This document shows positions 28,861 to 56,083 of a stretch of DNA of 64,000 nucleotides, piece after piece. The position numbers and the translations under genes are program-made. Source of the DNA: an uncultured Clostridia bacterium (GTDB lineage Bacteria; Bacillota; Clostridia; TANB77; CAG-508). The DNA is taken from positions 82,849-146,848 of the forward strand of contig CALXFH010000001.1 of the NCBI GenBank assembly GCA_944387555.1. The letters run 5' to 3'. The notes under the pieces were generated by a model. The model did no database searches and was not told the DNA's origin. It saw only the letters and a program-made list of their open reading frames with translations. Positions within the stretch are counted from its first letter, which is position 1. Every line of letters begins with the position of its first letter.

Positions 28861-29214
28861 ATTAAAAAAATAAAAAAATAAAAATATTCATTAAGAAAAT
28901 TAAAAGATTTTAAAATAGAAATGAGTTACAAAATAAAATAAAAATTATAAGTAGTTGGTTAAAATGAAAAGATAAAATACAAAGATAAAAAATCCAAATA
29001 AAAGTAAAAAAATATTATAAAGAAATAGGTTAAAAATGTTAGGCGTTTAAAAGAAAGCGGTAATGAATAAAATTAATTACCATTCAAGCAGAATTAGAAA
29101 AATAAGTTTACATATAAGAAAATAATAAATAGAAAAATGTTGTTATATTTTTAGGTTTTATTAAAATAAAGTTTAAAGAATTTAAAATATATTTATATTT
29201 AATTTATATAAATA

Positions 29215-29530: not shown

Positions 29531-30165
29531 TAAATAATTAATTACAAAATAATTATTTAAATAAAAATAATTTTTTTATAAAAATAAAAAAAATCTAATT
29601 AAAGAAAAATAATCAATTAAATAATTGTATATAAAGAAAAAATTAAAAATAAAAAGGAGGTTGCATAAATTTTGAAAAGTTTAAAAGAAATTATAAAAGA
29701 AACTTTAAAAAATATAAAAAAGGAATTAAAAGAATTACTAAAAAGGCTTAGGCATTAAAAGAAAAAGAAGAATTGATAAAATGAAAGACAAATTTAAAGT
29801 GAGTAGCTACAAAGGTTTACATATATAAAAATAAAATTCTTAATGCTATTTAAATAAATAAGTTTGTTGTTTCGATTTAGTATTTCAAAAAAATAAAATT
29901 TCATAAAATTAAAAAGAAAAAATAAAATATTTAATTTTAAATATTAATAAAAAATAATCAATTAGAAATAAATTAATTAAAGATAATTAACAAAAAAATA
30001 ATAAAATAAAAAATAAAATAAATTAAAAAATAAATTAATTAAAAAACAAATTAATTAAAAAATAAATTAATTAAAAAAATTAATTAAATAAAAATAATAA
30101 AATAAAAAAAATTAATTAACAAAAATGAATAATTAATTTTATTAAATAGAAAAAGGAGGAGAAAA

Positions 30166-33289: not shown

Positions 33290-36200
33290 AATTGATTAAA
33301 TAAAAAAATAAATAAAATTAATTAAATTAATTAATAAAAATAAAATAATTATTTTTAATAAAATAAAAAATTAATTAAAAAATAATTATTAATTAAAAAT
33401 AAAAAATAATTAATTTAATAAAATATTAAAATAAATATAAAAAATATTTTTTAAATATTTAAATAATTTAATTAATTAAATATTTAATAAAAATAAAAAT
33501 AATTTTTTATAATAAATATTAATTTTTATTTTTTAATAATTTAGGAATAAATTATTTTAAAAATTTTAAATTATAAAATTATATTTTTAAAAATAAAAAA
33601 ATTATATAAAAATATTTTAAAAAACTTATAAGAATAAAAATAGTTAATAAAATTATAGAAAAAATAATCAATAAAATGTTAGGCATTAAAAGGATTAGAG
33701 AGTTATTAATAAAATATAGAAAAACAAGAAAAAGGTTTACATATAATAATTAATAAAAACAAATCAGATATGGAGATTAGATATATTTTTAATAATTTTA
33801 CTGGTAAAAAATTAAAATTTACTATGATTTAATATTATTAAAAAATAATATTAAATAAAAAATAATTAAACAAATTAAAATATTAATTTAAAAATATTTA
33901 TAGAATAAATTAAAAAAATATTTTAATAAAAAATAAATAAAATTAATTAATAAAAATTATTCAATAAAATAAAAAATAAAATTAATCATTACTAATTAAT
34001 AAAAAATAATTAATTAATAATAAAAAAATAAATAATTAAATAAATAAAATAATGAAATAAATGAAAATAATTTAATTAAATAAAAAATAAATATTAAAAT
34101 AATTAAATAATTAATTTATTTAAAATAATTATTAAAAATAAAAAATTAAATTATAAAAAAATAAAATAAATTTTTTCTAATAATTTTATTAATAAAATAG
34201 AAATTTAAAATATAAAAAAATGTTTTACCAGATATAAATGTTTTTAATTAAAATAAAAGTTCACAAAAAAGACAATAGCATAAAAGAATAATAAAAAATA
34301 TTTATGAAATTGGTAAAAAATAATTAATAAAAAACTAGGCATTAAAAGAATTGAACGATTATTAATAAGCCACTGAATAATAAACAAAAAAGTTTACATA
34401 TAACATATTATAAATATTATTTTTCTTGGATTATTAATCAGTGTTTTCAAGAATTTTCTTAAATACTAAAATTAAATTCATTTTATTTTTATAAAAATAA
34501 ATTAAAATAAATAATATAAAAAATTAATTTTATAAAATTAATAAAAAATATTTAATTTAAAAATAAATAAAATTAATTAATAAAAAAATTATTTAATTAA
34601 ATTAAATAATAATAAAAAATAATAATTTAAAAATAAATAAATTAATTAAATAAATAAAAAAATATTTTAATAATTAAAATATTAATTAATTTAAATTAAT
34701 AAAAAACAATTATTAATTAAAAAATAAAAATAGTTAATTAAATAAAAAATTAAAAAATAAATATAAAAAATATTTAAATAATTAATTAATATAAAATAAT
34801 AAAAATTAATTTTAAAAAATATATTTTAAATTATAAACTAAAGAACCAAAAATTATAGAGGAAAAATTATAGTTACTTTTCTGTTAATCTTAAAAAGCAT
34901 ACATAAGGATAAAAAATATAAAATAGAAAGCAAAATATAGTAAAAATAATTAATGAATTACTAGGCATAAAAGGGATAGACAAGCTAGATTTTAAATAAA
35001 TAAAATAGAAGAAAATAGTTTACATATTTTTGTTAAATTAAATTTGATTTTATCTAATTATTTAAAATAATTTAAAAAATTGTTGTTATAAAAAAGAAGT
35101 TTATTATAATTTTTTATCAAATATTAAAATAGAAAATAGAAATTATAAAAAATTAATTTAAAATATTTTTTAAAAATAAAAAATATTTAATAAATAAAAT
35201 TAATTAATAAAAAGTTATTTAATAAAATAAAAAATAAATAAAAATAATAAAATAATTATTTAAAAACAAATAATTTAAAATTTAATTAAATATAAAATAA
35301 TTATTAATTAAAAATAAAATTAATTTAAAAAATATTAAAATAAATATAAAAAAGATTTTTTTAAATATTTATATAATTTAATTAATTATTTATAAAAATA
35401 AAAATAATTTTTTATAACAAATATAATTTTTGATTTTGAATAATAAGAAGAAATTATATTAAAAAAAATAATATAAAAGGATTTTATAATGACTATCATA
35501 ATAAAATAGTTAATAAAAGCATAAAAAATAATTAATAAAATGTTAGGCATTAAAAGGATTGCACGATTAATAACAGAGAAAGAAAAAACAACAAAAATAG
35601 TTTACATATAACGAATGATTTAAATTATTTTTATTTAATAAAAGAGTCTGATTTAAAAAAATTATTAAAACAAAGATTAAGTTTATTATTATTTTTTATA
35701 ATAAAAAATTTAAAAATATAAAAAAGAAAATATTAAAAATTAATTTTAAAACATTTTTTAAAATTAAATAAAAAATATGTTAATAAAAAAATAAATAAAA
35801 TTAGTTAATAAAAAATTTATTTAATTAAATTAAAAAAATAATAAAAAATAATTAAATAATTAAAAATATAAATAATAAAAAAATAATAATTAAAAAATAA
35901 TTTTAATTAAATAAAAAAATATTTAATTAATTAAAATAAAAAATAAATATTTAAAATATTAATTTAAAATAATTTTATTATAAAAAATAAAATAAAATTA
36001 AAAAAATTATTTTTATAGCAATAATATTTTTGATAATAAAAAATAAAAAAGGTAGTATTGAAATTTTTCTAATTTAAAGAATAGTTTAAATTAATAAAAA
36101 AATATAATAAAAACAAAATAATTTGTGAAAATGTTAAAAAAATAAATTTTAAAAAGTTAGGCATTAAAGGGATTGCAAGATTAATAATAGATTAGAAGAA

Positions 36201-36850
36201 GACAAGAAAAATAGTTTACATATAATGAATAATTGAAATTACTTTTATTTAATCTAGAGAACTTATTTTAAAAATATTATTAAAATAAAAATAAAATTTG
36301 TATAGTTTTCATTCTAATAATTTAGAAAAAAGAATATTAAAAAATAAAAAATTAATTTAAATTTATTAAAAAAATAGAATAATAAAAAATAAAATTAATT
36401 ATTTAAATAAATAAAAAATATTTAATAAAAAATAAATTAATTATTTAAATAAATAAAAAATAATTAATAAAAAAATAAATTAATTATTTAAATAAATAAA
36501 AATAATAAAATTAATTATTTAATAAATAAAAAGAATTAATAAAAATAAATTAGTTGTTTTTAATAAATAAAAAATAAAATTTTTTAAAATTTGTTTTTAA
36601 ATCTAAATTTGATTTTTAAGTAAAGCATAAAGATTTAAAATCTGAAATTAAAATCTAAAAAATATTCCAGAGAATTAATTAAATATTAAATAGAAAGATA
36701 ATATTTTTTAAAAAATTGTTATTTATATTTAATTTAAATATACGCAAATAAGCATTTTTAAAAATATGAACGAGTAAAAAGAATAAAAGAAAACAGTTAA
36801 CATATAAAAGAAAACGTTAACTATATTAAAGAAGTATTTTTAAAAGATTC
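33033..36850. repeat. Satellite-like tandem array of ~7 units with a 580-660-bp period. Each unit has a conserved ~70-bp core, (T)TAGGCATTAAAAGG-N45-AGTTTACATATAA
   Basis: Core copies at 33033-33102, 33679-33746, 34336-34403, 34962-35027, 35543-35611, 36157-36225, and a degenerate copy at ~36770-36830. The spacings are 646, 657, 626, 581, 614 and ~610 bp. Confidence 0.8.
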
Positions 36851-37066
36851 TACAAAAATTATAAACTAAAAAGAATATAAAAAATTATTTATTATTTTAT
36901 AAAAAGAAAATTATAAAATTAATTTATTTAATTTTATAAATAAATAATTATTTTAATTAATAATTAGAAAAATAAATTATTTTATTTTAAATAAAATAAT
37001 TAAAATTAAAATAATTAAAAATAAAAAATAATTAAATAAAAATAGAAAAAGAAAGGATGAAAAAAT

Positions 37067-37792
37067 ATGGAAATGGAAAATTTAGAAAAAAATAATAATT
37101 TAGAAATAGAAAACAATTTAGAGGTGGAAAATGAACAAAAAGGATTCTTAGAATCTACTTTAGGAAAAACAATTAATGCAGCAGTGGATATTGGTATTAG
37201 AGCTTTATTACCTGACTTTATAGATGAACAAGTAATTAATATAAAGGATAATTTATTAGAGTATGGACTAAAAGATGGAATAACAAAAACTATTGATGAT
37301 GCTATCGATTTAGGAAAAAGTGCTATAGGTATTTTTAAAGGAGACTTTGAAAATGTATCTCAAATGCAAAGTGCAGTTCAAAATGGAGGTTTAATTGATG
37401 GAGTTTCTGATTTATTAGATGTAGTAGTAGATAAAGTAAATGATGCTGGTTTAATTAGTAATAATGTAGCAAAAACAATTAAACAAGGAAAAGACGTTAT
37501 TTTAAGTAATGTAGAAAGTAATATAGAAAATACATTTAGTAAACAATATGAAGCTATAGAAAATGTAGATAATTATATTAGTAGCTGGAAAGAAAGTTTT
37601 GAAAAACAAGATTTTGATGCTATGGAAAAAGAATACCAAAAACTAGAAGAACAAATGCAAGATATTGCACCTATTACTAAAACAATAGAAGAAGCTAAAA
37701 CTATAGAAGTATTACATAACTTAATTAAAAATAATGGACAAGACTTTAATTTAAGTAATGAACAATTAGAATTAGTGGAAAAATTAAAATAA
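37067..37792 (+). CDS. Hypothetical acidic protein
   Basis: ORF with normal composition and an RBS (AAAGGATGA) 7 nt upstream; no family recognised. Confidence 0.4.
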   Translation: MEMENLEKNNNLEIENNLEVENEQKGFLESTLGKTINAAVDIGIRALLPDFIDEQVINIKDNLLEYGLKDGITKTIDDAIDLGKSAIGIFKGDFENVSQMQSAVQNGGLIDGVSDLLDVVVDKVNDAGLISNNVAKTIKQGKDVILSNVESNIENTFSKQYEAIENVDNYISSWKESFEKQDFDAMEKEYQKLEEQMQDIAPITKTIEEAKTIEVLHNLIKNNGQDFNLSNEQLELVEKLK

Positions 37793-37814
37793 AAAAGAAA
37801 GGATATTATAAATT

Positions 37815-38783
37815 ATGGAGAAAAAAATAAATACTAATATTGAAAATAATAAACGAAATGAAAAAGAAATAAATAATAAAAATAATACATATAAAGAGGA
37901 TAATAAAAAGAAATTTAAATTATTAGATCCAAAAAATGATGTTGTATTTCAAATGTTATTTCTTAAAAATAATTTAGCAAAAGGATTATTAGATAATATT
38001 TTAATAGATAAAATAATTTCTGTAAATGTTGATGTAAATAAACAGTTATTAGGAGATAGACCAGAAGATAAAATAGGAATAGTAGATTTAAGAGCAATAA
38101 TAAATAATGAAATAGAATGTGAAGTAGAAATGCAAATGTTTTATTTTAATAATTTTGTTCCGAGATTTTTAGATTATTGGTCTAAAATGTATTCAAGACA
38201 ACTAAAAAAAGGAGATAATTATGACTTATTACATAGAGTTATTTCTATTGCTATTATTAATCAAAATATTCCAGACTTAAAAGGATTACCAGCACATACT
38301 ATATGGAATATAAGAGAATCTAGGAATCATAGAAAAATATTGACAAATAACTTAGAGTTACATATAATAGAAATACAAAAGGCTAAAGAGGAATATAAAC
38401 ATAACAAGGATGATAAATTATTACAATGGATAAAGTTTCTAGAAAACCCAGAAAGCAAGGAGGTAGATAGAATAATGGTAAGTAATAAAGAAATAAAAGA
38501 AGCTAAAAAAGAATTATTTAGCTTAAGCCAAGATGAAGAAAACCAAAGAATAGCAGATTTTAGAGAAAGAGAAATTATGGATAGAAAGGATATCTACGAA
38601 ACAGGAAAGGATGAAGGTAAGGCAGAAGGAATAAAAGAAGGAAGAAAAGAAGGAATAAAAGAAGCAAGAGAAACTTTTATAATAAATTTACTTAAGATTA
38701 AAATGCCAATTGATAAAATAATAGAATTTACAAGTGCAACTAAAGAAGAAATTGAAAAAATAAAGGAAAGTAAAAATCTATAA
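37815..38783 (+). CDS. Rpn-family (YhgA-like) PD-(D/E)XK recombination-promoting nuclease / putative transposase
   Basis: N-terminal DPKNDVVFQMLF...EVEMQ pattern; C-terminal repeat-helix domain ...KEGRKEGIKEARETFIINLLKIKMPIDKIIEFT..EEIEKIKE. Confidence 0.6.
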   Translation: MEKKINTNIENNKRNEKEINNKNNTYKEDNKKKFKLLDPKNDVVFQMLFLKNNLAKGLLDNILIDKIISVNVDVNKQLLGDRPEDKIGIVDLRAIINNEIECEVEMQMFYFNNFVPRFLDYWSKMYSRQLKKGDNYDLLHRVISIAIINQNIPDLKGLPAHTIWNIRESRNHRKILTNNLELHIIEIQKAKEEYKHNKDDKLLQWIKFLENPESKEVDRIMVSNKEIKEAKKELFSLSQDEENQRIADFREREIMDRKDIYETGKDEGKAEGIKEGRKEGIKEARETFIINLLKIKMPIDKIIEFTSATKEEIEKIKESKNL

Positions 38784-38828
38784 AAATATAATGTCTATTA
38801 AAAATAAAAAGCAAGGGGTTATATAATT

Positions 38829-39134
38829 ATGGTAAAAAATCAAAGAATAGAAGAAATTAAAAGAGAATTAATGAATTTAAATCAAAATGAAGAAAATCAA
38901 AGGCTTATAGATTTTAGAGAAAGAGAATTAAGGGATATGATAGATCTTTACGAAACTGGAAAAGATGAAGGAAGGAAAATAGGAATAGCAGAAGCAAGAA
39001 AAGAAGCAAGAAAAACTATAATAACAAATTTACTTAAGATGAAAATACCAATTGATAAAATAATAGAAGTTACAAATGCAAGTAAGGAAGAAATTGAGAA
39101 AATAAAGAAAAGAAATTATAATAAAGAAGTTTAA
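38829..39134 (+). CDS. Tandem partial paralog of the Rpn nuclease, C-terminal domain only
   Basis: LNQNEENQRLIDFRERELRDMIDLYETGKDEGRKIGIAEARKEARKTIITNLLKMKIPIDKIIEVT.ASKEEIEKIKK aligns to the last ~90 aa of 37815..38783. Confidence 0.55.
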   Translation: MVKNQRIEEIKRELMNLNQNEENQRLIDFRERELRDMIDLYETGKDEGRKIGIAEARKEARKTIITNLLKMKIPIDKIIEVTNASKEEIEKIKKRNYNKEV

Positions 39135-39273
39135 TTTTGTTAATATTTAAAACAATTATACATATATTTATATTATCATAAATTATTAATTAATTTAAAA
39201 AAATTTAAGTTATATGAAAAACCAGAGTCCGTTAGGATTCTGGTTTTTATAATAATATATATTTTATATAGAT

Positions 39274-39314
39274 GTGTCCCCAAATGCACATTTTTGAGCA
39301 AAAGGAAACGTCCC
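39274..39314 (-). repeat. GGGAC-element copy A (reverse orientation), immediately 3' of the XRE gene stop
   Basis: Reverse complement reads gggacgtttccttttgctcaaaaatgtgcatttggggacac; compare copies at 44684 and 47707. Confidence 0.7.
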
Positions 39315-39685
39315 TATTTTTTATTTTTTTCATATTCTTTGAAAAATGAATATGATGTAGTTAATATTTTATAATAATAGTCCTTCATTTCTTCAGAACT
39401 TCTATTTAATATTCTATCTATTTTTTGTGAGGTTGAATTTGTTTCTTCATTACCAAATAAAATATAGTCTGTAGATACTCCAGTAAATGCTACTATACGG
39501 CATAATGTTTTTATACTTAATGAACGTTCGCCTCTTTCTATTTGCCCTAAGAATATATCAGATATATCAACTGCTTCTGAAAATACTTCTCTACTCATTT
39601 TCATGTTTTCTCTTGCTTTTCTTATTCTTTCTCCTACTTCTAAATTATTTGGTATCTTTGTATCCATATTATTCCTCCCAAACAT
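39314..39685 (-). CDS. XRE-family helix-turn-helix transcriptional regulator, divergent from the DGR target gene
   Basis: HTH LSREVFSEAVDISDIFLGQIERGERSLSIKTLCRIVAFTGVSTDYIL. Confidence 0.75.
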   Translation of the reverse strand: MFGRNNMDTKIPNNLEVGERIRKARENMKMSREVFSEAVDISDIFLGQIERGERSLSIKTLCRIVAFTGVSTDYILFGNEETNSTSQKIDRILNRSSEEMKDYYYKILTTSYSFFKEYEKNKK

Positions 39686-39780
39686 ATATTTTTATTATAT
39701 ACTAACAGATTTTTAAAACTAATATGCTATTAGTAAATATATAAATTAAGATAAAAGCATAAAAATATTTTAAAAAACTG

Positions 39781-39809
39781 TTGCAAAATAAATATGCTTA
39801 AAGTATAAT
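39781..39809 (+). promoter_or_regulatory. Promoter for the DGR target gene (TTGCAA-17-TATAAT)
   Basis: TTGCAA 39781-39786, 17-nt spacer, TATAAT 39804-39809. Confidence 0.5.
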
Positions 39810-39995
39810 TCTAATATAAGTTATTAGCTATTTTAAAAAATAGTAGCACCTTGAAAAAAACTATATTTTCTTTATTAGATTTTTTGTATATTAAATAATA
39901 TTTTTATTAAAAGGTATACTATTTTTTAGATAGTAAATAATAACAAAAGAATAACAAAAAATATAATTTAGACAAACTAAAGAAGGAGGTTATAT

Positions 39996-41375
39996 ATGTA
40001 TAATTATTCTAAAAATTATAATTTTAATTCTAATAAAGATAAAATAAAAGACAAAATAAAAAAGATAAAAACAAATAATTCTGGTATTACTATTGTTGCT
40101 TTAGTTGTAACTATTATTGTTTTATTAATTTTAGCAGGAATAACAATAGGAGCAATTACTGGAGATAATGGTATTATTAATAAAGCGCAAGAAGCTAAAA
40201 ATGATACCAATTATGCTCAATGGGAAGAAAAGATTGACCAAGCTATCATAGATGCAGAAAGTAAATACAGAAATCCAACTATGATTAATGTAAAAGAAGA
40301 GTTAAGAGATAAAGGCATAATTGAAGATTATGACAAAGTAGATGACAAAACAGGAGCTATAACAACAGTAGATGGTACCATAATAGAAGGTAAGCTTGAT
40401 GATTATATAGAGTTTGGACCAGGTATGGTAGCGGATAAGAATGAAACTTATACAGATGCAAATGGAGACACAGCAACGATACCAAAAGGTTTTGAGATAT
40501 TAGAAGATGCAAGTACAGTAGATGATGGTTTAGTTATTCAAGATGAAAGTGGTAACCAATTTGTATGGATACCAGTAGAAACACCAGTAGCAAGTGCAGA
40601 AGCAGATGGAACAACAAATAAAGCAATGGCAATAAAGAATGGAAATAATTATAGAGGTTTACTTTATGACTTTACTAGTACAGGCTCAACAGTAAAAAGT
40701 GGATGTACAACGACTACAAGTAGTTATAGAGAGCCAGCTTATTTAACAGATTCAAGTTATGCGGATGGGTCTTCATATAATCAAGATGGAGATGGAAATA
40801 AAATAGTAACAGAAGATAGTCTACAACAAGAATATAATAAAATGATGGCAAGCGTTGAACAATATCATGGCTTTTATGTAGGAAGATATGAACTTGGTTT
40901 AGAAGGAACAACGCCAGTAGTAAAAAACGCAAGTACGAATTCAGGTGTTACAACAGCAGATGCAAGTAATTCAAATACTAAGATGTGGTATGGCTTATAT
41001 AGTAAGTGCAAAGAATTTGCACCAGAAGATAGTAATAAATCAGTGGTAAGTAGTATGATATGGGGAAGTCAATATGATGAAATGCTTAATTGGATGCAGG
41101 CAAATGGAGAAGATGTGTCAGCATCAGCTGATAACACTGAAACAATAAGAAATAATTCTACAAAAACAGGAAGTCAAGAAAAAGATTTTATGAAAAATGT
41201 ATATGACCTTTATGGATGTCATTATGAGTGGAAATTAGAGGCCAACATCACGAAAGAACGTGTTTATCGTGGAGGTAATTCTAGCAGTAGCAGCGCTCCT
41301 AGCAGCCGTCGCAGCACCTATTCGAGCAATGCCAGCAGTACCTATTCAGCCCGTCTCACTTTATATATAAAGTAG
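39996..41375 (+). CDS. DGR target (variable) protein. N-terminal pilin-like hydrophobic anchor, beta-rich central region, and a C-terminal FGE-sulfatase/C-type-lectin-fold-like domain ending in the VR
   Basis: N-terminus ..NNSGITIVALVVTIIVLLILAGITIGAITG; C-terminus ..DLYGCHYEWK..ERVYRGGNSSSSSAPSSRRSTYSSNASSTYSARLTLYIK; strong RBS AGAAGGAGG. Confidence 0.8.
   Translation: MYNYSKNYNFNSNKDKIKDKIKKIKTNNSGITIVALVVTIIVLLILAGITIGAITGDNGIINKAQEAKNDTNYAQWEEKIDQAIIDAESKYRNPTMINVKEELRDKGIIEDYDKVDDKTGAITTVDGTIIEGKLDDYIEFGPGMVADKNETYTDANGDTATIPKGFEILEDASTVDDGLVIQDESGNQFVWIPVETPVASAEADGTTNKAMAIKNGNNYRGLLYDFTSTGSTVKSGCTTTTSSYREPAYLTDSSYADGSSYNQDGDGNKIVTEDSLQQEYNKMMASVEQYHGFYVGRYELGLEGTTPVVKNASTNSGVTTADASNSNTKMWYGLYSKCKEFAPEDSNKSVVSSMIWGSQYDEMLNWMQANGEDVSASADNTETIRNNSTKTGSQEKDFMKNVYDLYGCHYEWKLEANITKERVYRGGNSSSSSAPSSRRSTYSSNASSTYSARLTLYIK
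41240..41360 (+). repeat. DGR variable repeat (VR) at the 3' end of the target gene
   Basis: Matches the TR at 43522..43632; over a 93-nt core, 14 of 16 mismatches correspond to adenines in the TR. Confidence 0.8.
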
Positions 41376-41489
41376 TACTGAGACCTGAGTTGTGAGTATT
41401 GGAAATAGTAGAAAATTAAAACATTAAGAGAATTTAATTTTTTAGGTTGTAAAAGAATAAAAACTGTAGTAAAATTTAAGTTAATAGAA

Positions 41490-41580
41490 AGGTAGGTAGG
41501 AAATTCCCTTGCAGGGCGAAGACGCCAAAAGGGGATTTCCTACCGGACTAGTCCGGTAAGACTAGTCCTATTTTTTTGCG
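41490..41580 (+). other. GC-rich nested palindromes downstream of the VR (candidate DGR target-recognition hairpin / terminator)
   Basis: ggtaggaaattccc-[ttgcagggcgaagacgccaaaa]-ggggatttcctacc; ggactagtcc-ggtaa-gactagtcc-tattttttt; gcgaaaaaataggact. Confidence 0.5.
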
Positions 41581-41648
41581 AAAAAATAGGACTAAGAACA
41601 ACGAAAGGTTACATAAAACCTTATAAAAATAGAAAGGTGGGATTTTTT

Positions 41649-42080
41649 ATGAAATTTTTAAAAAGAATAGAAAAAATAAAGTCAGAAAATGAAGATAAAA
41701 TAGTATTAGCAAGATGTGGATTATTTGTAGTGGCAGTAGGAAATGATGCAAGAATATTAAGTAAAGAATTTGGATTAAAGAAAACTTGTATGAAAAGAGG
41801 GGTATGTAAAGTAGGAATACCTGCTAGCTATGCATTAAAATATTTAAAATTAATAGAAGATAAAGGTTATAGTTATTTATTATATGACTATGATAAAAAT
41901 ACAAAAGAAATGATAGAAAAATATAGATATATTGGTACTAATAAAGTAGAAGAAATTAGCATAGATTGTCCTTCTTGTGAAAATTATAAAGAACAAGATG
42001 TTATAGATATCTTTGAATTATTAAGAAGAAAAAAAGAAAAAAATAAAAAAGAAGTAAATGGGGAAAAAGAAAATGAATGA
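41649..42080 (+). CDS. Small protein with a MutS domain I (mismatch-binding domain)-like sequence, located between the DGR target and Avd. The ORF track uses a GTG start at 41637
   Basis: KIVLARCGLFVVAVGNDARILSKEFGL...VCKVGIPASYALKYLKLIEDKGYSYLLYD parallels MutS [25 protein letters not shown]...[29 protein letters not shown]. The Phe is conserved and the Glu is not. AAAGGTGGG lies 8 nt upstream of ATG 41649. Confidence 0.45.
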   Translation: MKFLKRIEKIKSENEDKIVLARCGLFVVAVGNDARILSKEFGLKKTCMKRGVCKVGIPASYALKYLKLIEDKGYSYLLYDYDKNTKEMIEKYRYIGTNKVEEISIDCPSCENYKEQDVIDIFELLRRKKEKNKKEVNGEKENE

Positions 42081-42468
42081 AAAAAGTAGAGAAAATAACA
42101 TAAGAGAAAATGGAAAAAATGAACTAATATTAATACCAAAATATGAAAGATATATGCAGTATATGATAGAAATAATTTTAAAAATGCCAAGAACAGAAAA
42201 ATTTAATATAGGAAATGAATTTAAAACAGTTATGTATAAATGCTTAGAAAATATACTGTATTTAAATAAAATAGAAATATCAAAAAGAATGTATTATTTA
42301 AATTTAATAGATGCAGGTTTAAATATTCAAAGAATAATGCTTAGGATAATGTTAAAAAATAAGTGGATAGATAAAAAGAAATATTTAGTATCAATGGAGT
42401 TGTTATATGAAATAGGAAAAATATTAGGAGGATTAATAAAGTTTTATGCCAAAAACAATAAGAAATAA
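42058..42468 (+). CDS. avd: Avd-like DGR accessory protein (small basic helical protein); the likely start is ATG 42073
   Basis: ~130 aa, basic, predicted all-helical; sits immediately upstream of the RT and overlaps its start. Confidence 0.55.
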   Translation: MGKKKMNEKSRENNIRENGKNELILIPKYERYMQYMIEIILKMPRTEKFNIGNEFKTVMYKCLENILYLNKIEISKRMYYLNLIDAGLNIQRIMLRIMLKNKWIDKKKYLVSMELLYEIGKILGGLIKFYAKNNKK

Positions 42469-43462
42469 GTATTATAAATATTTAACATTTAATAGGCTTA
42501 TGGAAGCACATAAGAAAGCAAGAAGGGGAAAAGGATATAGAGAAGAAATAATAAAATTTAATCTAAAACAAGAAGAATATATAATGTATCTATTAGAAAG
42601 GTTGAGGAATAAGAGTTATAAACATGGAGGCTATAAAGTATTTTATATAACAGAGCCAAAACCTAGAAAAATAGAACGTTCAAGATATATAGATAGAATA
42701 GTACATACATTTTATGTAGAAAACTTTTTAAAACCATATTTTATGCCTTGTTTTATAAATACAAGTTATGCATGTATTCCATGTCGTGGTATGCATAAGG
42801 CATGTTTAGATGTGCAAAAAGCTATGAAACATTGTAAAAATATTTGGGGAGAATATTACATTCTAAAGATGGATGTAACAAAATATTTCCAAAATATAGA
42901 TAAGGACATATTGTTAGAAATATTAAAGAAGAAAATAAAGGATAAAGATTTATTGTGGTTAACAAAAGAAATAATATATTCAAATAAAGGAAAAAAGAGT
43001 TTACCAATTGGAAATTATACATCACAAATGTTTGCAAATATTTATTTAAATGAATTAGACCAATATGTGAAAAAAGAATTGGGAATAAAATATTACTTTC
43101 GTTATATGGATGACTCAGTTTTATTTGTACGTGGCAAAGAAGAAGCTAAATGCTATTTAGAAAAAATAAAAGAATTTATTTATTCTAAATTAGAACTAAC
43201 ATTAAATAAAAAAACACAAATATTTAAATCTAAACAAGGAGTAAATTTTTGTGGTTATAAAATAAATGAATATAGACTAAAGATTAGGGATAAAGGAAAA
43301 AGAAAATTAAAGAAAAAAATCGTAAAGTTAAAAAAGTTAATAAAAGAGGGAGAGCTTACAAGTGATGATGCTAAAAAATATTTAGTAGGTCATCTAGGAT
43401 ATATAAAAATAGCAGATACATATAAGTTAGAAAATAAACTATTTTATAGAGAAAATAAGTAA
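42446..43462 (+). CDS. DGR-type reverse transcriptase
   Basis: Motif 4 LPIGNYTSQMFANIYL (the [ILV]GxxxSQ DGR signature); motif 5 FRYMDDSVLF (YMDD); motif A region ILKMDVTKYFQNI; 338 aa with no maturase or endonuclease domains. Confidence 0.85.
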   Translation: MPKTIRNKYYKYLTFNRLMEAHKKARRGKGYREEIIKFNLKQEEYIMYLLERLRNKSYKHGGYKVFYITEPKPRKIERSRYIDRIVHTFYVENFLKPYFMPCFINTSYACIPCRGMHKACLDVQKAMKHCKNIWGEYYILKMDVTKYFQNIDKDILLEILKKKIKDKDLLWLTKEIIYSNKGKKSLPIGNYTSQMFANIYLNELDQYVKKELGIKYYFRYMDDSVLFVRGKEEAKCYLEKIKEFIYSKLELTLNKKTQIFKSKQGVNFCGYKINEYRLKIRDKGKRKLKKKIVKLKKLIKEGELTSDDAKKYLVGHLGYIKIADTYKLENKLFYRENK

Positions 43463-43521
43463 ATTTAGAAAATATAAAAAATTATTAAGTAAAAATAATT
43501 TTAATTAGGGATAAATCAAAA

Positions 43522-43632
43522 GGCCAACAACACAATAATCGTGGAGGTAATTCTAACAATAGCAACGCTCCTAGCAATCGTAACAACAACAATCCGAACA
43601 ATACCAACAGTAACAATTCAGCCCGTCTCACT
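43522..43632 (+). repeat. DGR template repeat (TR), rich in AAC/AAT codons
   Basis: ggccaacaacacaataatcgtggaggtaattctaacaatagcaacgctcctagcaatcgtaacaacaacaatccgaacaataccaacagtaacaattcagcccgtctcact. Confidence 0.85.
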
Positions 43633-43877
43633 CTAATACGATTCTAGATTATATATTTTAAGGAATATATACAATGAAAGTATTAGTATTAAAGAGATTT
43701 ATTCCTTCCTAATATAGGTAAAAAAGTATCAGTAAAATAGGTATTAGTAAAAATACCAAGAAGTATTTTGAATATACTTATTTTACAATTAATTATTTAA
43801 TTTAAGTTGATATATTTTTATTTAATTTAATTTATTTTATTTTTTAAATACTTAAAATTAATTTAAAGAGGTAAAAA

Positions 43878-44144
43878 ATGAATATATGTTTTGTAATAGG
43901 AAAAATAATAAGTGATATACAATTTGATTTTATAATAGACGGAAAAAGTATTGGGAAAAAATTTTCAATTGTAAGATTTGAAATAGAATTGCTAGATAAA
44001 GAAAAAACAAAAGTAAGTGTAATAGCTTATGGAAAAATAGCAGAAAAATGCTTTCAAAAGTTAGTAAAAAGTGATATTGTAAGTATATATGGCGACCTGA
44101 ATTCTAATGGAAAGTTAGAAATAGAAGAAATAGATTTATTATAA
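43878..44144 (+). CDS. Mini SSB-like OB-fold protein (88 aa) lacking the acidic tail
   Basis: MNICFVIGKIISDIQF..GKKFSIVRFEIEL..VIAYGKIAEKCFQKLVKSDIVSIYGDL follows the SSB N-terminal OB-fold pattern; RBS AAAGAGG. Confidence 0.4.
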   Translation: MNICFVIGKIISDIQFDFIIDGKSIGKKFSIVRFEIELLDKEKTKVSVIAYGKIAEKCFQKLVKSDIVSIYGDLNSNGKLEIEEIDLL

Positions 44145-44363
44145 AATAAAAAAATACATGTATATTATAAATAAAAAATAAAATAATAAATTATAATATA
44201 AAGAAAAAATAAGAAATAAGAAAACAGAAGAAAAAATAAAAGAATAAATAAAAACAAAAGAAAAAGGAAAAAATAATAAAATCTAAAAAAGGAATAATTA
44301 AAAATAAGGAAACAAAATAAATAAAAAAATAAAACAAAGTAGAAATAATTTTAAAATATAAAA

Positions 44364-44666
44364 ATGGAGGTTTATAAAATGGAAGAAAATATAAATAAAA
44401 AAGATATGATAAAATTAATATATAAAGCACAAGAGGAGAAAATAGATAATATTATTAAAAAAGTAAATAGAGAAGTAAAGGATGAATTAAAAACAATAAA
44501 TACAGAAAAAGTAATAGCTTCATCTAATGAGCCAAATGAAACACGAGAAGTTTTTAGAAAAATAGAAGATAACTATAATATAAAAATAACAAGATATAAT
44601 GAAGAAATGTATAAAAAAGGGTTTATAGATGGTGTAAACTTTATGATGAATTGTTTAGACAAATAA
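44364..44666 (+). CDS. Hypothetical protein
   Basis: RBS AATGGAGG; normal composition; no family recognised. Confidence 0.4.
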   Translation: MEVYKMEENINKKDMIKLIYKAQEEKIDNIIKKVNREVKDELKTINTEKVIASSNEPNETREVFRKIEDNYNIKITRYNEEMYKKGFIDGVNFMMNCLDK

Positions 44667-44683
44667 AATAATTGGGGACGTTT

Positions 44684-44719
44684 CCTTTTGCGCATTTTTG
44701 CGCAATCTGGGACACATTT
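44684..44719 (+). repeat. GGGAC-element copy B, immediately 3' of the 44364..44666 stop
   Basis: ggggacgtttccttttgcgcatttttgcgcaatctgggacacattt. Confidence 0.7.
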
Positions 44720-44739
44720 ATTAAACAATAAAAATATAA

Positions 44740-44789
44740 ATCATAAAAAACGTGATAATATCACGAAATTGTTAGCTAAAAACGTGATT
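44740..44789. promoter_or_regulatory. Two similar 15-bp palindromes, ACGTGATAATATCACG and ACGTGATTAAATCACG, ~17 bp apart (operator-like)
   Basis: Read directly; ~440 bp upstream of gyrA. Confidence 0.45.
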
Positions 44790-45163
44790 AAATCACGTTT
44801 TCCTTTCTAAATAATTATAAAAAGATATATTAAAAATAGAATCTATTACAACGGCACACAAAATAAAGAATATTTGTGCACCATTGTAGTGTTATAAAAT
44901 ATTAAAAAAATAAATTATATGAAATATGTGTAATATGTATGATATATGTTTGGATTAAATGCTTGCAAAATAATGTAAATATAAGGGATTTTCAGTTGTT
45001 TGGATTTTCCGAACAACTGAAATTAAAAAGTATTAATAAAAATAAATAAGTAATATATAATAATTTTTTTTATTCAAAAATTTATTATAAAATAACATTA
45101 AAAAAATTAATAGAAAAAAGCAAAAAATACCTTACTGAATAAGGAATTTCTTGTTAAAATTAC

Positions 45164-45192
45164 TTGCAAAATTTATCTAGTTTTAGTATAAT
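45164..45192 (+). promoter_or_regulatory. gyrA promoter (TTGCAA-17-TATAAT)
   Basis: TTGCAA 45164-45169, TATAAT 45187-45192, ~40 nt upstream of the gyrA ATG. Confidence 0.55.
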
Positions 45193-45231
45193 ACAAATGT
45201 AGAAAAATACGAAGAAAAGAGGGAAAACAAT

Positions 45232-47694
45232 ATGGAAGAAACACCAAAAAGAAATGACGGAAAAATAATAGAAAGAGACATCGAAAAAGAAATGAGAACA
45301 GCCTACATAGACTATGCAATGAGTGTTATTGTATCACGTGCACTTCCAGACGCAAGAGATGGTTTAAAACCAGTACATAGAAGAATATTATATGCTATGT
45401 ATGAAGATGGAATAACATCAGATAAACCATACAGAAAGAGTGCTAATACAGTAGGTTCAGTTCTAGGAAGATACCATCCACATGGAGATAGCTCTGTTTA
45501 TGATGCAATGGTAAGAATGGCACAAGACTTCTCAATGAGATACCAATTAATAGATGGACATGGAAACTTTGGTTCTGTAGACGGTGATGGAGCAGCAGCT
45601 ATGAGGTACACAGAAGCTAGAATGTCAAAAATAGCATCATATATGCTTACAGATATTGAAAAAAATACTGTAGACTTTATGCCAAACTATGATGATAGAT
45701 TACAAGAACCAACAGTATTACCAGCAAGAATACCATTGTTATTAGTAAATGGATCATCAGGTATAGCCGTAGGTATGGCGACAAACATACCACCACATAA
45801 CTTAACAGAAGTTATAAATGGAATAATAAAAGTAATAGATGAAGACAATGTGTCAGATGAAGACTTAATGAAAATAATAAAAGGACCAGATTTCCCAACA
45901 GAAGGACTAATATTAGGACGTGAAGGAATTAAAAAAGCATATACAACAGGAAGAGGAAAAATAACATTAAGAGCAGAAACAAACATTGAGGAAATGAGTG
46001 GAAATAGACAAAGAATAATAGTTTCATCATTACCATATCAAGTAAATAAAGCAAACTTAATAAAAACAATATCAGAATTATCTAAAGAAAAGAAAATAGA
46101 AGGAATCTCAGAATGTAGAGATGAATCAGATAGAAAAGAAAAAGTAAGAGTAGTAATAGAACTAAAAAGAGATACAAATGCACAAGTTGTATTAAACCAA
46201 TTATTTAAACATACACAAATGCAAACAACATTTGGTGTTATAATGCTTGCATTAGTTAATGGAGAACCAAAAATATTAACATTAAGACAAGCAATAGATG
46301 TTTATATTCAGCATAGAAAAGAAGTTATAACAAGAAGAACACAATTTGATTTAGATAAAGCATTAGCAAGAGCTCATATATTAGAAGGATTAAGAATAGC
46401 AATAGACAACATCGATGAAGTAATTCAAATAATACGTTCATCATATGATGATGCAAAAGAAAGATTAATGGAAAGATTTGGATTATCAGATGTACAAGCT
46501 CAAGCAATTCTAGATATGAGATTAAAAACACTATCAGGTTTGCAACGTGAAAAAATAGAAGAAGAATATAAACAATTAATGGAATTAATAGACCATTTAA
46601 GAGCAATACTTTCAAGTGAAAAACTACTATTTGATGTAATGAAAGAAGAATTAATCGAAGTAAGAGATAAATTTGGAGATGAAAGAAAAACAAAAATAGT
46701 AGCATCAGAAGCAGAAATAGAATTAGAAGACTTAATAAAAGAAGAAGAATGTGTAGTAGCTCTAACACATTATGGTTATATTAAGAGAATGCCAATAGAT
46801 ACATATAGAAGCCAAAGAAGAGGCGGGAAAGGTATAACAGGAATGGTAACTCGTGAAAATGATTTTGTAAAAGAAATCTTTATAGCGTCAACACATGATA
46901 CGATTCTATTCTTCTCAAATAAAGGAAAACTATATAAATTAAGAGGATATGAAATACCAGAAGCAGGAAGAACTGCAAAAGGAACAGCAATAGTTAATTT
47001 ATTAAGTTTAGACCCAGGAGAAAAAGTATCAGCAGTAATACCATTACAAAACTTTGCAGAAGGAAAATACCTACTTATGGCAACAAAGAATGGATTAATT
47101 AAGAAAACAGCATTAAAAGAATATGATACAACAAGAAGAACAGGATTACAAGGAATAACACTAAAAGATGACGATGAATTAATAGCAGTTAGATTAACAG
47201 ACGGAGAAGATAATGTTGTATTAGTTACAAGAAAAGGATTATGTATAACATTTGATGAAAAAGAAGTAAGACCAATAGGTAGAGTAGCACAAGGTGTTAT
47301 AGGAATAAGACTAGATGACGATGATGAAGTAATTGGTATGGAATCTGTAATAAATGGAGGAAAAGCAACATTACTAGCAATAACTGAAAATGGATTTGGT
47401 AAGAGAACAGAACTTGATGAATATAGAGTACAAAAAAGAGGCGGAAGAGGAGTAATCACATATAAGATTACACCAAAGACAGGAGAACTAATAGGAGTAA
47501 GAATTGCAACTGAAGATGATGAAGTAATGTTAGTTACAGATACAGGAACAATTATAAGATTAAAAGTAAAAGATATAAGCATCTTAGGAAGATCAACACA
47601 AGGAGTTACTCTAATGAGAACAAGCGATGGTGGAAAAGTAGTAGGAATGGAAATACTAACACCAGAAAAAGAAGAAATAGGAAAAATGTTATAA
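45232..47694 (+). CDS. gyrA: DNA gyrase subunit A
   Basis: Active-site region AAMRYTEARM; GyrA box; C-terminal beta-pinwheel repeats. Confidence 0.97.
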   Translation: MEETPKRNDGKIIERDIEKEMRTAYIDYAMSVIVSRALPDARDGLKPVHRRILYAMYEDGITSDKPYRKSANTVGSVLGRYHPHGDSSVYDAMVRMAQDFSMRYQLIDGHGNFGSVDGDGAAAMRYTEARMSKIASYMLTDIEKNTVDFMPNYDDRLQEPTVLPARIPLLLVNGSSGIAVGMATNIPPHNLTEVINGIIKVIDEDNVSDEDLMKIIKGPDFPTEGLILGREGIKKAYTTGRGKITLRAETNIEEMSGNRQRIIVSSLPYQVNKANLIKTISELSKEKKIEGISECRDESDRKEKVRVVIELKRDTNAQVVLNQLFKHTQMQTTFGVIMLALVNGEPKILTLRQAIDVYIQHRKEVITRRTQFDLDKALARAHILEGLRIAIDNIDEVIQIIRSSYDDAKERLMERFGLSDVQAQAILDMRLKTLSGLQREKIEEEYKQLMELIDHLRAILSSEKLLFDVMKEELIEVRDKFGDERKTKIVASEAEIELEDLIKEEECVVALTHYGYIKRMPIDTYRSQRRGGKGITGMVTRENDFVKEIFIASTHDTILFFSNKGKLYKLRGYEIPEAGRTAKGTAIVNLLSLDPGEKVSAVIPLQNFAEGKYLLMATKNGLIKKTALKEYDTTRRTGLQGITLKDDDELIAVRLTDGEDNVVLVTRKGLCITFDEKEVRPIGRVAQGVIGIRLDDDDEVIGMESVINGGKATLLAITENGFGKRTELDEYRVQKRGGRGVITYKITPKTGELIGVRIATEDDEVMLVTDTGTIIRLKVKDISILGRSTQGVTLMRTSDGGKVVGMEILTPEKEEIGKML

Positions 47695-47706
47695 AATAAA
47701 GGAAAT

Positions 47707-47759
47707 GTCCCATTTGGGACGTTTCCTTTTGTCGGTTTTTCGACAATTTGGGACACATT
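47707..47759 (+). repeat. GGGAC-element copy C, immediately 3' of the gyrA stop
   Basis: gtcccatttgggacgtttccttttgtcggtttttcgacaatttgggacacattt. Confidence 0.7.
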
Positions 47760-47997
47760 TAATTGATAAAAAGATATACAAATTTTAATTTGTTTCTTAA
47801 AAGTCAATTTTATTTTCTTTTAACTAAAATTATTTTACATAATTTTAATATGTAAACTTCACTTAACACTTTTCACAAATTTATTCCTGTTTTAGTAACT
47901 TTTCTTGTATTATAGTATATATTTTTTAAAAAAATAAATAATTAATAAAAAATATAAAAATAAATATGAATATAAATATAAATATAAATATAAAAAC

Positions 47998-55869: not shown

Positions 55870-56083
55870 ACTACAATCCTTTCTTTCTATATAATGTTTT
55901 AAAATTTCCTAATAAACAATATCACAATTTAGAAAAATTTTCAAATATAAATTGTAAAAAATAAAAAATTAATTTATTATGTGAGACAAAAAAAACCGTC
56001 CCCAAAATTCTCATTTCTTGCTAAACTTCGTGTTTTATGGTATGATAGTATTTAGAAATCAAGGAAAGGAAATAATAAATATA

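Follow-up and report, generated by a model that had tools for sequence, protein, structure and literature searches.

Three copies of a hairpin repeat in the window

The window, as the whole 64-kb stretch of DNA analysed here is called, contains three copies of a repeat of about 45-55 nt that is composed of GGGACGTTTCCTTTTG, a variable hairpin and TGGGACACAT. Copy A lies at the XRE gene, copy B at ORF 44364-44666 and copy C past gyrA. The features are:

39270-39314, minus strand: copy A, with GGGAC at 39314 and running to CATCT at 39270; GGGACGTTTCCTTTTG, hairpin GCTCA-AAAA-TGTGC (6 bp, one mismatch), ATTTGGGGACACATCT; HMM E=2e-14
44665-44719, plus strand: copy B, core 44675-44719; GGGACGTTTCCTTTTG, 7-bp hairpin TTGCGCA-TTTT-TGCGCAA, TCTGGGACACATTT; HMM E=1e-13
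47696-47711, minus strand: inverted partial 5' arm GGGACATTTCCTTTAT, preceding copy C
47716-47760, plus strand: copy C, 22 nt past the gyrA stop codon; GGGACGTTTCCTTTTG, 6-bp hairpin TTGTCG-GTTTTT-CGACAA, TTTGGGACACATTT; HMM E=1e-10

These three GGGAC copies had been reported in a first-pass annotation of the sequence and all of them are present, but two of the starts given there were displaced: copy B had been started at 44684, 9 nt too far right, and the start proposed for copy C (47707) is the GTCCC of the inverted half-arm. GTCCCYAAA motifs at 55998 and 62925, which had been listed as relatives, have no family HMM match and belong to a separate three-copy motif. The 16-mer GGGACGTTTCCTTTTG has 3 exact occurrences in the window. 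When up to 3 mismatches were allowed, 5 matches were found against 0.25 expected, a number that 0/100 shuffles reached. The family HMM detected exactly copies A, B, and C (E 1e-10 to 2e-14). The first G of copy A is shared with the XRE stop codon TAG, and the position of the 10-nt 5' module of copy B (44665-44674) overlaps the stop of ORF 44364-44666 (TAA, 44664-44666). Except for the half-arm before copy C, no decayed inverted partners were found beside the three copies, and comparison of their 3'-side DNA with other places returned low-complexity AT-rich noise only.

The central hairpins are variable and lack a following U-tract, as had been described, with 7 bp in copy B, 6 bp in copy C, and 6 bp with one mismatch in copy A. 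None of the three was called as an intrinsic terminator. Copies B and C fold better than shuffles (the DNA fold of copy B is -8.9 kcal/mol, z -4.5), and the RNA folds also beat shuffles; the fold of copy A is weak (DNA z -0.6; RNA z -3.2). The inverted half-arm and the 5' arm of copy C form a 14-bp stem at 47698-47729, directly 3' of the gyrA stop (DNA -15.6, RNA -27.8 kcal/mol, z about -4.3 to -4.9). This stem is the sole terminator-like call among the three loci.

Spread and anatomy of the repeat family

A pattern scan of species-representative genomes returned at least 111 stretches, with at least 134 pattern matches in about 110 loci of at least 30 uncultured Clostridia MAGs. Nearly all of the listed stretches come from uncultured Clostridia/Clostridium MAGs, several of which have at least 9-10 loci. 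The family HMM gave 166 matches in 109 loci (824 kb in total). None of the 80 related gyrA loci (806 kb) has a copy, so the family is patchy among relatives. Viral contigs contained no copies in the pattern scan and 38800-45300 had no megablast match to phage records; a phage origin was rejected.

A boundary profile was prepared from the 122 of 134 pattern matches that had full flanks. The boundaries are sharp: conservation extends from -10 to +5 and the flanks are random. The search pattern fixed a 14-nt arm, and positions -3 to -1 and +1 to +5, which were not part of the search, are nevertheless conserved across at least 30 species and sites. The element begins with a variable 10-nt 5' module, usually repeating the 3' half of the hairpin followed by ATTG. 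Then come an invariant GGGACGTTTCCTTT arm, a stem of 5-9 bp whose sequence is species-specific yet complementary, and a 3' arm (T/G)GGGACA-CATCT; the conserved arms of the consensus are GGGACGTTTCCTTT and GGGACACATCT. The core is 39, 40 or 41 nt long, about equally often. A small peptide (reverse strand ATG-TGT-CCC, MCPK) was therefore discarded, as no frame is kept. Promoters (sigma-70 and sigma-54 boxes) were also discarded: there is no -10 at a fixed distance, the flanks are random beyond +5 and the scan was not above shuffles.

The stem is maintained by covariation. A perfect stem of at least 5 bp is found in 55/81 distinct centres, compared to 4% of shuffles, and these stems comprise at least 15 sequences. 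Paired cells make up 81.7% of alignment A2 vs 56.5% in shuffles, and 6/7 stem pairs have double changes. The covariation score is 0.611 vs 0.185 in shuffles (0/500 reach it), and slid controls scored 0.07-0.15.

The arms also resemble a box known from transposase-associated repeats, GGGGWSAS (GGGG[AT][CG]A[CG]). The 3' arm fits it as GGGGACAC in copy A and many other members, as TGGGACAC in copies B and C, and as GGGGACAG in L117, while the 5' arm GGGGACGT matches at 6/8 positions. GTAG, the classical 5' mark of REP sequences, is absent from the consensus, and the element sequence was not found in the literature searched. Rfam returned no match at gathering thresholds or at E<=1, on which ground a known RNA family was rejected; this includes TwoAYGGAY, to which a resemblance had been considered.

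Genomic placement, gain and loss

The copies are intergenic. Among 105 copies that could be assigned, 60 are co-oriented with the upstream gene and 45 are opposite (43% antisense). The uniform gene-relative orientation after stops that the first-pass annotation reported is thus correct for the window (3/3) but does not extend to the family. Co-oriented copies begin within 10 nt of the stop codon in 41/60 cases, and antisense copies are often located just upstream of a ribosome-binding site. The asymmetry is strong, with the 5' edge of the element tight against genes and the 3' edge not, and the known RAYT mechanism gives no account of it. Copies that appear to lie inside an ORF are nearly all explained by an open frame that continues out of the element to where the next gene truly starts, and not by insertion into a gene. 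All six frames of the element lack a stop and it is read through by several gene callers, because of which it could be mistaken for small ORFs. Neighbouring copies have a preferred geometry: at distances up to 1.5 kb (16-1500 nt), 30 pairs are convergent and 1 is divergent.

Comparison of orthologous sites uncovered insertion and absence of the repeat. It is present in L071, L072, and L051, and the orthologous site is empty in L042. The radA-disA spacer is filled in L045 and empty in L107 and L053. In L043 the site 3' of gyrB is filled, and the corresponding site of the window (27419) is empty. In these comparisons single 55-nt units were gained alone. No target-site duplication was found in four filled/empty comparisons, and no conserved target was seen in the flanks or at the filled and empty sites.

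Placement next to genes would also be expected if the copies were host RNA signals at gene 3' ends (a terminator, an mRNA-stabilising hairpin or a protein-binding 3' UTR module), selected per gene and immobile. All three window copies follow stops, like the co-oriented copies close to stop codons, the stem covaries, the RNA folds better than shuffles, and copy C with its inverted half-arm is terminator-like. However, the antisense copies, often just 5' of a ribosome-binding site, do not agree with such a role; the central hairpin has no U-tract and copies A and B were not scored as terminators. Terminators also do not need the conservation at unsearched positions beside the arm that is shared by so many species and sites. 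The filled and empty orthologous sites, the absence of an Rfam match, and the transposase homolog flanked by the repeat (described below) speak against it as well. A family of immobile 3' signals is distinctly improbable, and an RNA role may be a secondary function of some copies.

A single-copy transposase homolog flanked by the repeat

In L045 an ORF at 4333-5133 matches Pfam Y1_Tnp (E=2e-15) and lies between convergent repeats at 4169-4224(+) and 5141-5189(-). Convergent flanking repeats were also found in L025, L053, L093, L107, L117, L201, L211, L217, and L219. The repeat-flanked transposase gene is present in at least 10 loci, and no lineage in which the locus was seen lacks the flanking pair; the GGGACGTTTC arms lie outermost in it. 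The A/B pair of the window points outward, the reverse of the pair around the transposase gene. Gene order is fixed (MiaB-like radical SAM, small ORF, RAYT, radA, disA), the homologs are 58% to 100% identical, and the gene is single-copy, with no further copies in the 109 loci. One MAG, MGBC161913 (CAOPES01), contains the RAYT locus and at least 9 further copies with the same hairpin on 4 contigs.

Across 21-34 homologs neither the N-H-x-H motif nor the Tyr of RYIHQNP varies. No PDB match was obtained with the single protein sequence, and profile and fold searches were needed. The sole sequence match of the PDB profile search was 4ER8 (E. coli TnpA-REP, a RAYT bound to a REP hairpin). The AlphaFold model (pLDDT 87) has 4ER8_A as its best fold match (E=3e-7, TMt 0.71), followed by the IS608, ISDra2, and IS200 TnpA proteins. 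The homologs are longer than 4ER8 (255-266 aa, about 260, vs 165 aa), and the model places a helical domain at the C-terminus (184-259). This domain is probably an HTH; its Pfam matches are weak (HTH_23 in 2/21, Sigma70_r4_2 in 2/21).

No RAYT homolog is encoded within the 64-kb window. Samples of the same series (BRZ_*, ONAT22-1) do contain homologs. The gene has a conserved frame break in the sub-clade that seems nearest to the window genome, and for this reason RAYT may be inactive there. An inactive RAYT would fit the three different hairpins among the window copies.

The sharp ends, the TIR-like convergent doublets, and the gain and loss at orthologous sites would also suit a MITE, or solo ends of a DDE-type insertion sequence, moved in trans by a conventional transposase. 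Target-site duplication in 0/4 filled/empty comparisons does not fit such an element, nor does the gain of single 55-nt units alone, and no gene except the Y1 transposase homolog is repeatedly found between the repeats. A DDE-type origin is very unlikely.

In another reading a regulator or nucleoid protein would bind the repeats as double-stranded DNA, in arrays whose GGGAC boxes are spaced by about 10 and about 33 bp, and the RAYT flanks would be two more of its sites. GGGAC boxes do recur as direct repeats at helical-repeat spacing, tandem TGTCCATTG units are found upstream of some copies, and the C-terminal helical domain of the RAYT homolog could bind double-stranded DNA (PMC6006769). But the stem covaries as its sequence changes, which indicates a folded single strand and not a fixed duplex site; the copies are gained and lost as units and their position relative to promoters is inconsistent. 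This reading is scarcely credible.

The repeat is dispersed, it flanks a Y1/HUH transposase and its arm fits GGGGWSAS, which places it in a REP/"TIR" repeat family of the RAYT/TIRYT type. The three elements of the window are thus very probably lineage-specific extragenic hairpin repeats, gained and lost as units without target-site duplication, with a single-copy, repeat-flanked RAYT/TIRYT-type Y1/HUH transposase as their partner. The preference of the first-pass annotation for a REP-like element over a terminator was well placed, as this is a dispersed extragenic hairpin repeat tied to a homolog of the REP-associated tyrosine transposase.

Recombination sites around the DGR and gyrA: an unsupported reading

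The first-pass annotation had also likened the elements to attC cassette sites. In this reading they would be site-specific recombination sites, with copies A and B around the DGR and B and C around gyrA. In favour of it are the variable palindromic centre between conserved arms, the position of the window copies between functional units, and the occurrence of the DGR in only part of the relatives. The rest of the evidence points the other way. The DGR-less L122 and L129 keep the XRE gene, and this puts one of the boundaries of the difference between XRE and the DGR, at a position higher than about 39773. It therefore falls inside the A-B interval and not at copy A. Copy A is located past the opposite end of XRE, and the 1.5-kb segment that contains it (37800-39323) is a separate piece also missing from L122 and L129. 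Copies A and B had been said to bracket the DGR module, and this boundary contradicts it.

No rearrangement breakpoints were seen in the elements, and 19/19 contigs with identical gyrA have the same arrangement. The inverted attC core sites R''/L'' and L'/R' have the consensus RYYYAAC and GTTRRRY. Neither was seen at the ends of copies A-C when the sequence was read by eye; the arms are direct GGGAC repeats. In addition, the family pairs at 16-1500 nt are convergent and not direct repeats bounding cassettes, and the associated enzyme is an HUH Y1 transposase and not an integrase-type tyrosine recombinase. The attC-like reading can be given almost no credence: the elements are not recombination sites around the DGR or gyrA. 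A DGR-related signal was likewise rejected, as copies are found genome-wide at loci without a DGR.

Proposed mechanism

The link between enzyme and repeat is one of association and homology. By analogy with E. coli TnpA-REP (PMC3479197) and IS608, the RAYT homolog would bind and cleave the repeat. On the model of TnpA-REP and the IS608/ISDra2 TnpA, its substrate would be single-stranded DNA, recognised through the folded hairpin and the conserved arms with GGGAC. Its HUH/Tyr site would cut and rejoin, so that the repeat is copied or moved into intergenic DNA without target-site duplication. That the homolog moves the repeats, the strand and cleavage sites it would use, and any RNA-level role are all proposed on these grounds.

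The host genomes are very compact (24% GC), and copies would survive at gene boundaries because the genomes are tightly packed. There a co-oriented copy would have its 5' edge against a stop codon and an opposite copy against a ribosome-binding site, and the copies would be co-transcribed with their neighbours. Some of them probably also serve as terminator or mRNA-end hairpins, copy C with its additional inverted half-arm being an example.

The 5' half of the hairpin has two potential partners in many species, its own 3' half and the 10-nt 5' module, which can compete for it. A bolder version of the model would make the element a translation-sensitive RNA switch that punctuates operons, domesticated for a host function. 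The vertically inherited RAYT by radA/disA would maintain the elements precisely at stops and ribosome-binding sites, RAYT itself perhaps being produced through a conserved +1 frameshift (UUU-CGG, in one sub-clade). Such a domesticated switch is unlikely, with a small chance of being correct.

Comparison with known systems

Selfish or domesticated repeats of this kind are known in bacteria, and the family adds one that the literature searched does not describe. To our knowledge REP/RAYT systems have been studied almost entirely in Proteobacteria, and a clear pair of repeat and enzyme is now documented in uncultured low-GC gut Clostridia. For genome annotation the 55-nt units call for caution, since they should not be taken for terminators, recombination sites or small ORFs.

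Integron attC sites share with the repeat an imperfect palindrome, conserved outer parts, a variable centre, and a position after genes. Here, however, there are no core-site motifs, no cassette behaviour was seen, and the enzyme is of another class.

The IS200/IS605 elements (IS608, ISDra2; 'peel and paste') have the same HUH/Tyr Y1 fold, hairpin-based ends, and no target-site duplication. The short hairpin-adjacent sequence repeated at both sides of the element recalls their left and right cleavage sites. In contrast to them, the gene is neither multi-copy nor mobile as a unit (it has the same neighbours in all lineages seen) and there is no TnpB; the 55-nt repeat was multiplied and not the gene.

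The REP/REPIN-RAYT systems of Enterobacteria and Pseudomonas (4ER8) are also composed of short, imperfectly palindromic extragenic repeats, mostly at gene ends and often in inverted doublets, with species-specific stems. They too have a single-copy, vertically inherited, repeat-flanked transposase, and 4ER8 is the best structural match. The Clostridia repeats differ from them in several ways. They have no GTAG, what is conserved in them is a pair of GGGAC-containing arms on either side of a short variable stem, and their doublets are tail-to-tail with the GGGACG arms outward. The protein has an added C-terminal domain, and the host lineage is Gram-positive with a low GC (24%).

RAYT-like genes between long TIRs that share GGGGWSAS, with dispersed TIR families, were described as TIRYT/TIRtrons (Di Nocera 2013, PMC3733652). 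TIRYT were later equated with the TnpA-REP-like subclass 2.1, which has C-terminal HTH (Bac_DnaA_C / HTH_23 / HTH_28-like) domains (Quentin 2018, PMC6006769). The present system resembles TIRYT in its RAYT-like Y1/HUH gene, its long inverted repeats that are not GTAG REPs, and its GGGGWSAS-type box. Its repeats also occur elsewhere in the genome, singly, as dimers, and in clusters, and the protein is long with an extra C-terminal helical, putatively HTH, region. The C-terminal HTH of the known class is matched here by weak Pfam hits only. Group 1 RAYTs were reported in Clostridia (Bertels 2017, PMC5581495), and the system probably matches this group as well. Copy numbers appear to be higher, with roughly 70 per Mb in the sampled loci (a rough value, as these loci were chosen for holding a copy), compared to roughly 12 flanking 16-mer occurrences reported for Group 1. 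For the subclass 2.1 genes Quentin et al. reported no REP-like neighbours (PMC6006769), whereas here the flanking repeat contains a covarying hairpin. As earlier surveys found no hairpin repeats by this subclass, the family is well suited to comparative work on target recognition by a TIRYT-type enzyme. Its anatomy is unusually clean, with two invariant arms and a freely covarying stem, and it comes with dozens of species variants and with naturally filled and empty sites.

Element copies in the window

All three GGGAC copies reported in the first-pass annotation are present as described, with two start coordinates slightly corrected: copy B begins at 44675 instead of 44684, and 47707 marks where an inverted partial arm starts, copy C itself beginning at 47716.

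Element copies in the window
39314 down to 39270, minus strand: copy A, GGGACGTTTCCTTTTG-CTCAAAAATGTGC-ATTTGGGGACACATCT; its first G is overlapped by the TAG stop of an XRE-type gene (39314-39685, minus strand)
44675-44719: copy B, 8 nt past the stop of ORF 44364-44666
47716-47760: copy C, downstream of gyrA (45232-47694)

The 16-mer arm occurs exactly three times in the window. At up to 3 mismatches it has five matches against 0.25 expected, a number reached in none of 100 shuffles. Copy B folds as DNA at -8.9 kcal/mol (z -4.5); copy C, taken together with the half-arm before it, reaches -15.6 kcal/mol (z -4.3), and the fold of copy A is weak, as DNA and as RNA. Spurious 50-aa ORFs lie over copies B and C (44573-44728 and 47606-47758, both minus strand). 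At 44748-44800, within the lineage-specific stretch that separates copy B from gyrA, are two palindromes of nearly identical sequence, AACGTGATAATATCACG and AACGTGATTAAATCACGTT, spaced about 30 nt; they could be an operator-like pair.

The GTCCCYAAA motifs at 55998 and 62925, initially taken as related, belong to a separate three-copy motif that the family HMM does not match. Its form is AAGAAATGAGAAwwTTGGGGACGGnnYTTTTTTGTnTCAC (0 chance matches expected), and near 62.9 kb two of the copies make up an inverted pair of 23 nt with a 17-nt spacer. A strict pattern search for it over 216 loci returned none.

Copies of the second motif
55981-56006, minus strand
62867-62892, plus strand
62910-62935, minus strand

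Extent and anatomy of the family

The element belongs to a large, lineage-specific family. Scanning one genome per species with the pattern GGGACGTTTCCTTT-N12-26-GGGACA gave at least 111 stretches; nearly all lie in gut-sample MAGs of uncultured Clostridia/Clostridium, and among the matches listed several MAGs had 9-10 or more separate element loci. No copies were found in viral contigs scanned with the same pattern. The loci sampled (L-numbers) contained 134 pattern matches, and the family HMM gave 166 hits in 109 loci (824 kb in total). About 57 of these copies are additional to those by which loci were selected, which corresponds to roughly 70 per Mb, a value that is only rough because the loci were picked for carrying a copy; copy numbers per genome are likewise rough estimates.

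Conservation begins 10 nt upstream of the first GGGAC (consensus kGkyCMATTG) and ends 5 nt past GGGACA (CATCT), with random flanks outside. In the 10-nt 5' module the 3' half of the stem usually recurs together with ATTG, and "X-GGGAC" is thus present twice in direct orientation. Core lengths of 39, 40 and 41 nt are about equally frequent, which excludes a conserved reading frame. Since none of the element's six frames contains a stop codon, gene callers run ORFs through it. Many next-gene ORFs look N-terminally extended through the element, and in several homologs of the transposase described below (P0012, P0014, P0016) the C-terminal "...DVSQIGQNVQKETSP..." tail is translated downstream repeat.

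Covariation of the hairpin stem

The central stem, usually common to the copies of one genome, varies in sequence between species while its complementarity is kept.

Examples of stem halves
TGGACA/TGTCCA, TGCACA/TGTGCA, TTTCACA/TGTGAAA, TTGCTCC/GGAGCAA
TGAGTCA/TGACTCA, TGAAGCA/TGCTTCA, TTGCGCA/TGCGCAA, TTGTCG/CGACAA

A perfect stem of at least 5 bp is found in 55 of 81 distinct centres, against 4% of shuffles. In a 26-sequence alignment of the 7-bp helix, 81.7% of cells are paired (56.5% in shuffles) and six of the seven pairs changed on both sides. The covariation score of this helix is 0.611, compared with 0.185 in shuffles (0/500 as high) and 0.07-0.15 in slid controls. RNAalifold adds a pairing between the two invariant arms, which proves nothing because the arm columns never vary.

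Placement, gain and loss

The uniform gene-relative orientation first noted in the window is a small-sample effect: family-wide, 60 copies share the orientation of their upstream gene and 45 have the opposite one, out of 105 for which that gene could be assigned. The stop codon lies -1 to 10 nt from GGGAC in 41 of the 60 co-oriented copies, and many opposite-oriented ones sit directly 5' of a ribosome-binding site. The distance from the 3' edge to the next gene is typically tens to hundreds of nt. This is a consistent asymmetry, in which the 5' edge is tight to a gene boundary and the 3' edge is not. Neighbouring pairs (up to 1.5 kb apart) are convergent in 30 cases and divergent in 1, and tandem arrays occur in L054, L058 and L084.

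Orthologous filled and empty sites differ by just the element, sometimes with a few additional nt, and show no target duplication.

Filled and empty orthologous sites
L071, L072, L051 filled; L042 empty, with the two genes 3 nt apart
L045 filled in the radA/disA spacer; L107, L053 empty, with a 12-nt spacer
L043 filled directly after gyrB; the window empty at 27419

Since empty-site spacers are very short (3-12 nt), they partly explain the position of the 5' edge at stops and ribosome-binding sites, but not the 5'/3' asymmetry.

An associated transposase gene

In L045 a convergent pair of elements, 4169-4224 (plus strand) and 5141-5189 (minus strand), surrounds a 266-aa ORF matching Pfam Y1_Tnp ("Transposase IS200 like", E=2e-15). 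The HUH-motif HxH (NHVHL) and the Tyr of RYIHQNP are invariant in alignments of 21 and 34 homologs. In a profile search of all PDB sequences the sole match was 4ER8, the E. coli REP-associated tyrosine transposase (RAYT). The AlphaFold model (pLDDT 87) also has as its top fold match 4ER8_A (E=3e-7, TMt 0.71), the E. coli enzyme with bound REP hairpin, followed by IS608, ISDra2 and IS200 TnpA. One homolog is publicly annotated as "REP element-mobilizing transposase RayT".

In every lineage examined the gene order is fixed: MiaB-like radical SAM, a small ORF, the RAYT homolog, radA, disA. These orthologs span 100% down to 58% identity, and each lies between inverted element copies whose GGGACGTTTC arms are on the outside. 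Of the flanking repeat, the lineages furthest away retain nothing recognisable beyond the arm (T)GTCC-WTTT-GGGGACGTTTC, and L117 has a variant form, GGGGACAGTCCCC... Searches of the remaining loci and of the window turned up no second gene copy, and the 64 kb of the window contain no RAYT homolog.

In one sub-clade the RAYT homolog carries the same 1-nt frame break, ...UCA UUA UUU CGG AAA UAC UAA, at a site conserved in 5/5 loci. When the C is skipped, the conserved ...SLFGNTKQ(D/E)AI... is read again, and the downstream HTH part is open, with hardly any variation among the three species whose sequence was translated (L053, L093, L107). N-terminal ORFs of 160-197 aa form at least 12 protein clusters. 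Either these genes are old pseudogenes, or a programmed +1 frameshift takes place on the rare CGG codon.

Split RAYT homologs
L053: 3304-4135
L093: ~7100-7884
L107: 5711-4937 (reverse)
L201: ~3472
L211: ~3472

The stem of copy B resembles that of the repeats around the split genes in L053, L093 and L107, and the stem of copy C resembles a dispersed copy (L012) from the L053 MAG. Because the RAYT of this sub-clade carries the frame break, the three differing hairpins of the window may reflect an old or inactive element population.

The gyrA region and the DGR

The window (GC 23.6%) covers the chromosomal origin region, with ORFs in the order expected for dnaA, dnaN, recF, gyrB, gyrA; gyrA and its neighbours were named by Pfam, the other origin genes by order and similarity to relatives. 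About 18 kb of other genes separate gyrB from gyrA here (27419-45231), against ~5 kb in every relative showing both genes (loci L121-L200). Three long stretches without an ORF of at least 90 aa (21380-24400, between the ORFs read as dnaN and recF; ~28600-30150; 33290-37060) are unusual for this otherwise compact genome; they are AT-rich and match one another at 70-85% over 60-110 nt.

No element copies were found in 80 gyrA loci of relatives (GyrA 80-90% identical; 806 kb). From gyrA to the dnaC-like gene there are 24 nt in L122, compared with 350 nt including copy C in the window, and L125 has 37 nt in place of 44675-45160 with copy B. The closest relatives, L122 and L129, lack the 1.5 kb at 37800-39323, which holds a PDDEXK_2-domain gene (37815-38783), a 101-aa ORF (38829-39134) and copy A. 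The 101-aa ORF looks paralogous, with a C-terminus like that of the 322-aa protein. These comparisons mark copies A, B and C as lineage-specific intergenic additions.

The DGR was identified by bAvd and RT Pfam domains and an RT-14 RNA.

Parts of the DGR
39996-41375: target
41637: MutS_I-like
42058: bAvd
42446-43462: RT
43631-43786: RT-14 RNA

It is present in relatives L125, L127, L175, L176, L178 and L187 and absent from others. The proposal that copies A and B bracket it did not hold. In most relatives an XRE-type gene lies 5' of gyrA; L122 and L129 keep it and lack the DGR, which places one boundary of the difference on the DGR side of XRE, right of ~39773, with copy A on the opposite side of XRE. 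The A/B pair also points outward, the reverse of how copies are arranged at the transposase gene. There is no sign of recombination between copies. All 19 contigs with identical GyrA share the arrangement of the window.

Proposed mechanism and relation to known systems

By analogy with E. coli TnpA-REP (PMC3479197) and IS608/ISDra2, the RAYT would bind the hairpin in its folded state and recognise the conserved arms in single-stranded form. Its Tyr would cut and rejoin the strand, spreading the repeat without target duplication, and the direct "X-GGGAC" on both sides of the hairpin resembles a pair of cleavage sites, left and right. The primary mobile form may be the doublet, because its convergent, GGGACG-outward geometry matches that around the RAYT gene, although single-unit gains are also seen.

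Group 1 RAYTs occur in Clostridia, with flanking 16-mers of only ~12 occurrences (Bertels et al. 2017, PMC5581495). For RAYT-like genes that have long inverted repeats on either side in place of GTAG REPs, the name "TIRtrons" was introduced, with "TIRYT" for the enzymes (Di Nocera et al. 2013, PMC3733652); many of these TIRs carry GGGGWSAS, and some are moderately abundant dispersed families of singles, dimers and clusters. TIRYTs were equated with subclass 2.1, long proteins with C-terminal HTH-like domains and flanking GGGG[AT][CG]A[CG] repeats, whose genes were reported without neighbouring REP-like hairpins (Quentin et al. 2018, PMC6006769).

Unlike classical REPs, the present element lacks the GTAG tag. 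Its 3' arm GGGGACAC (GGGGACAG in L117) fits GGGGWSAS and the length of the RAYT homolog fits subclass 2.1; its C-terminal region is helical in the model, with weak Pfam HTH hits. A full-text literature search with the arm sequence returned no paper on bacteria. The element is therefore filed with the RAYT/TIRYT-associated repeats, as a previously undescribed sequence, in which a covarying hairpin within a TIR-type repeat is the noteworthy feature.
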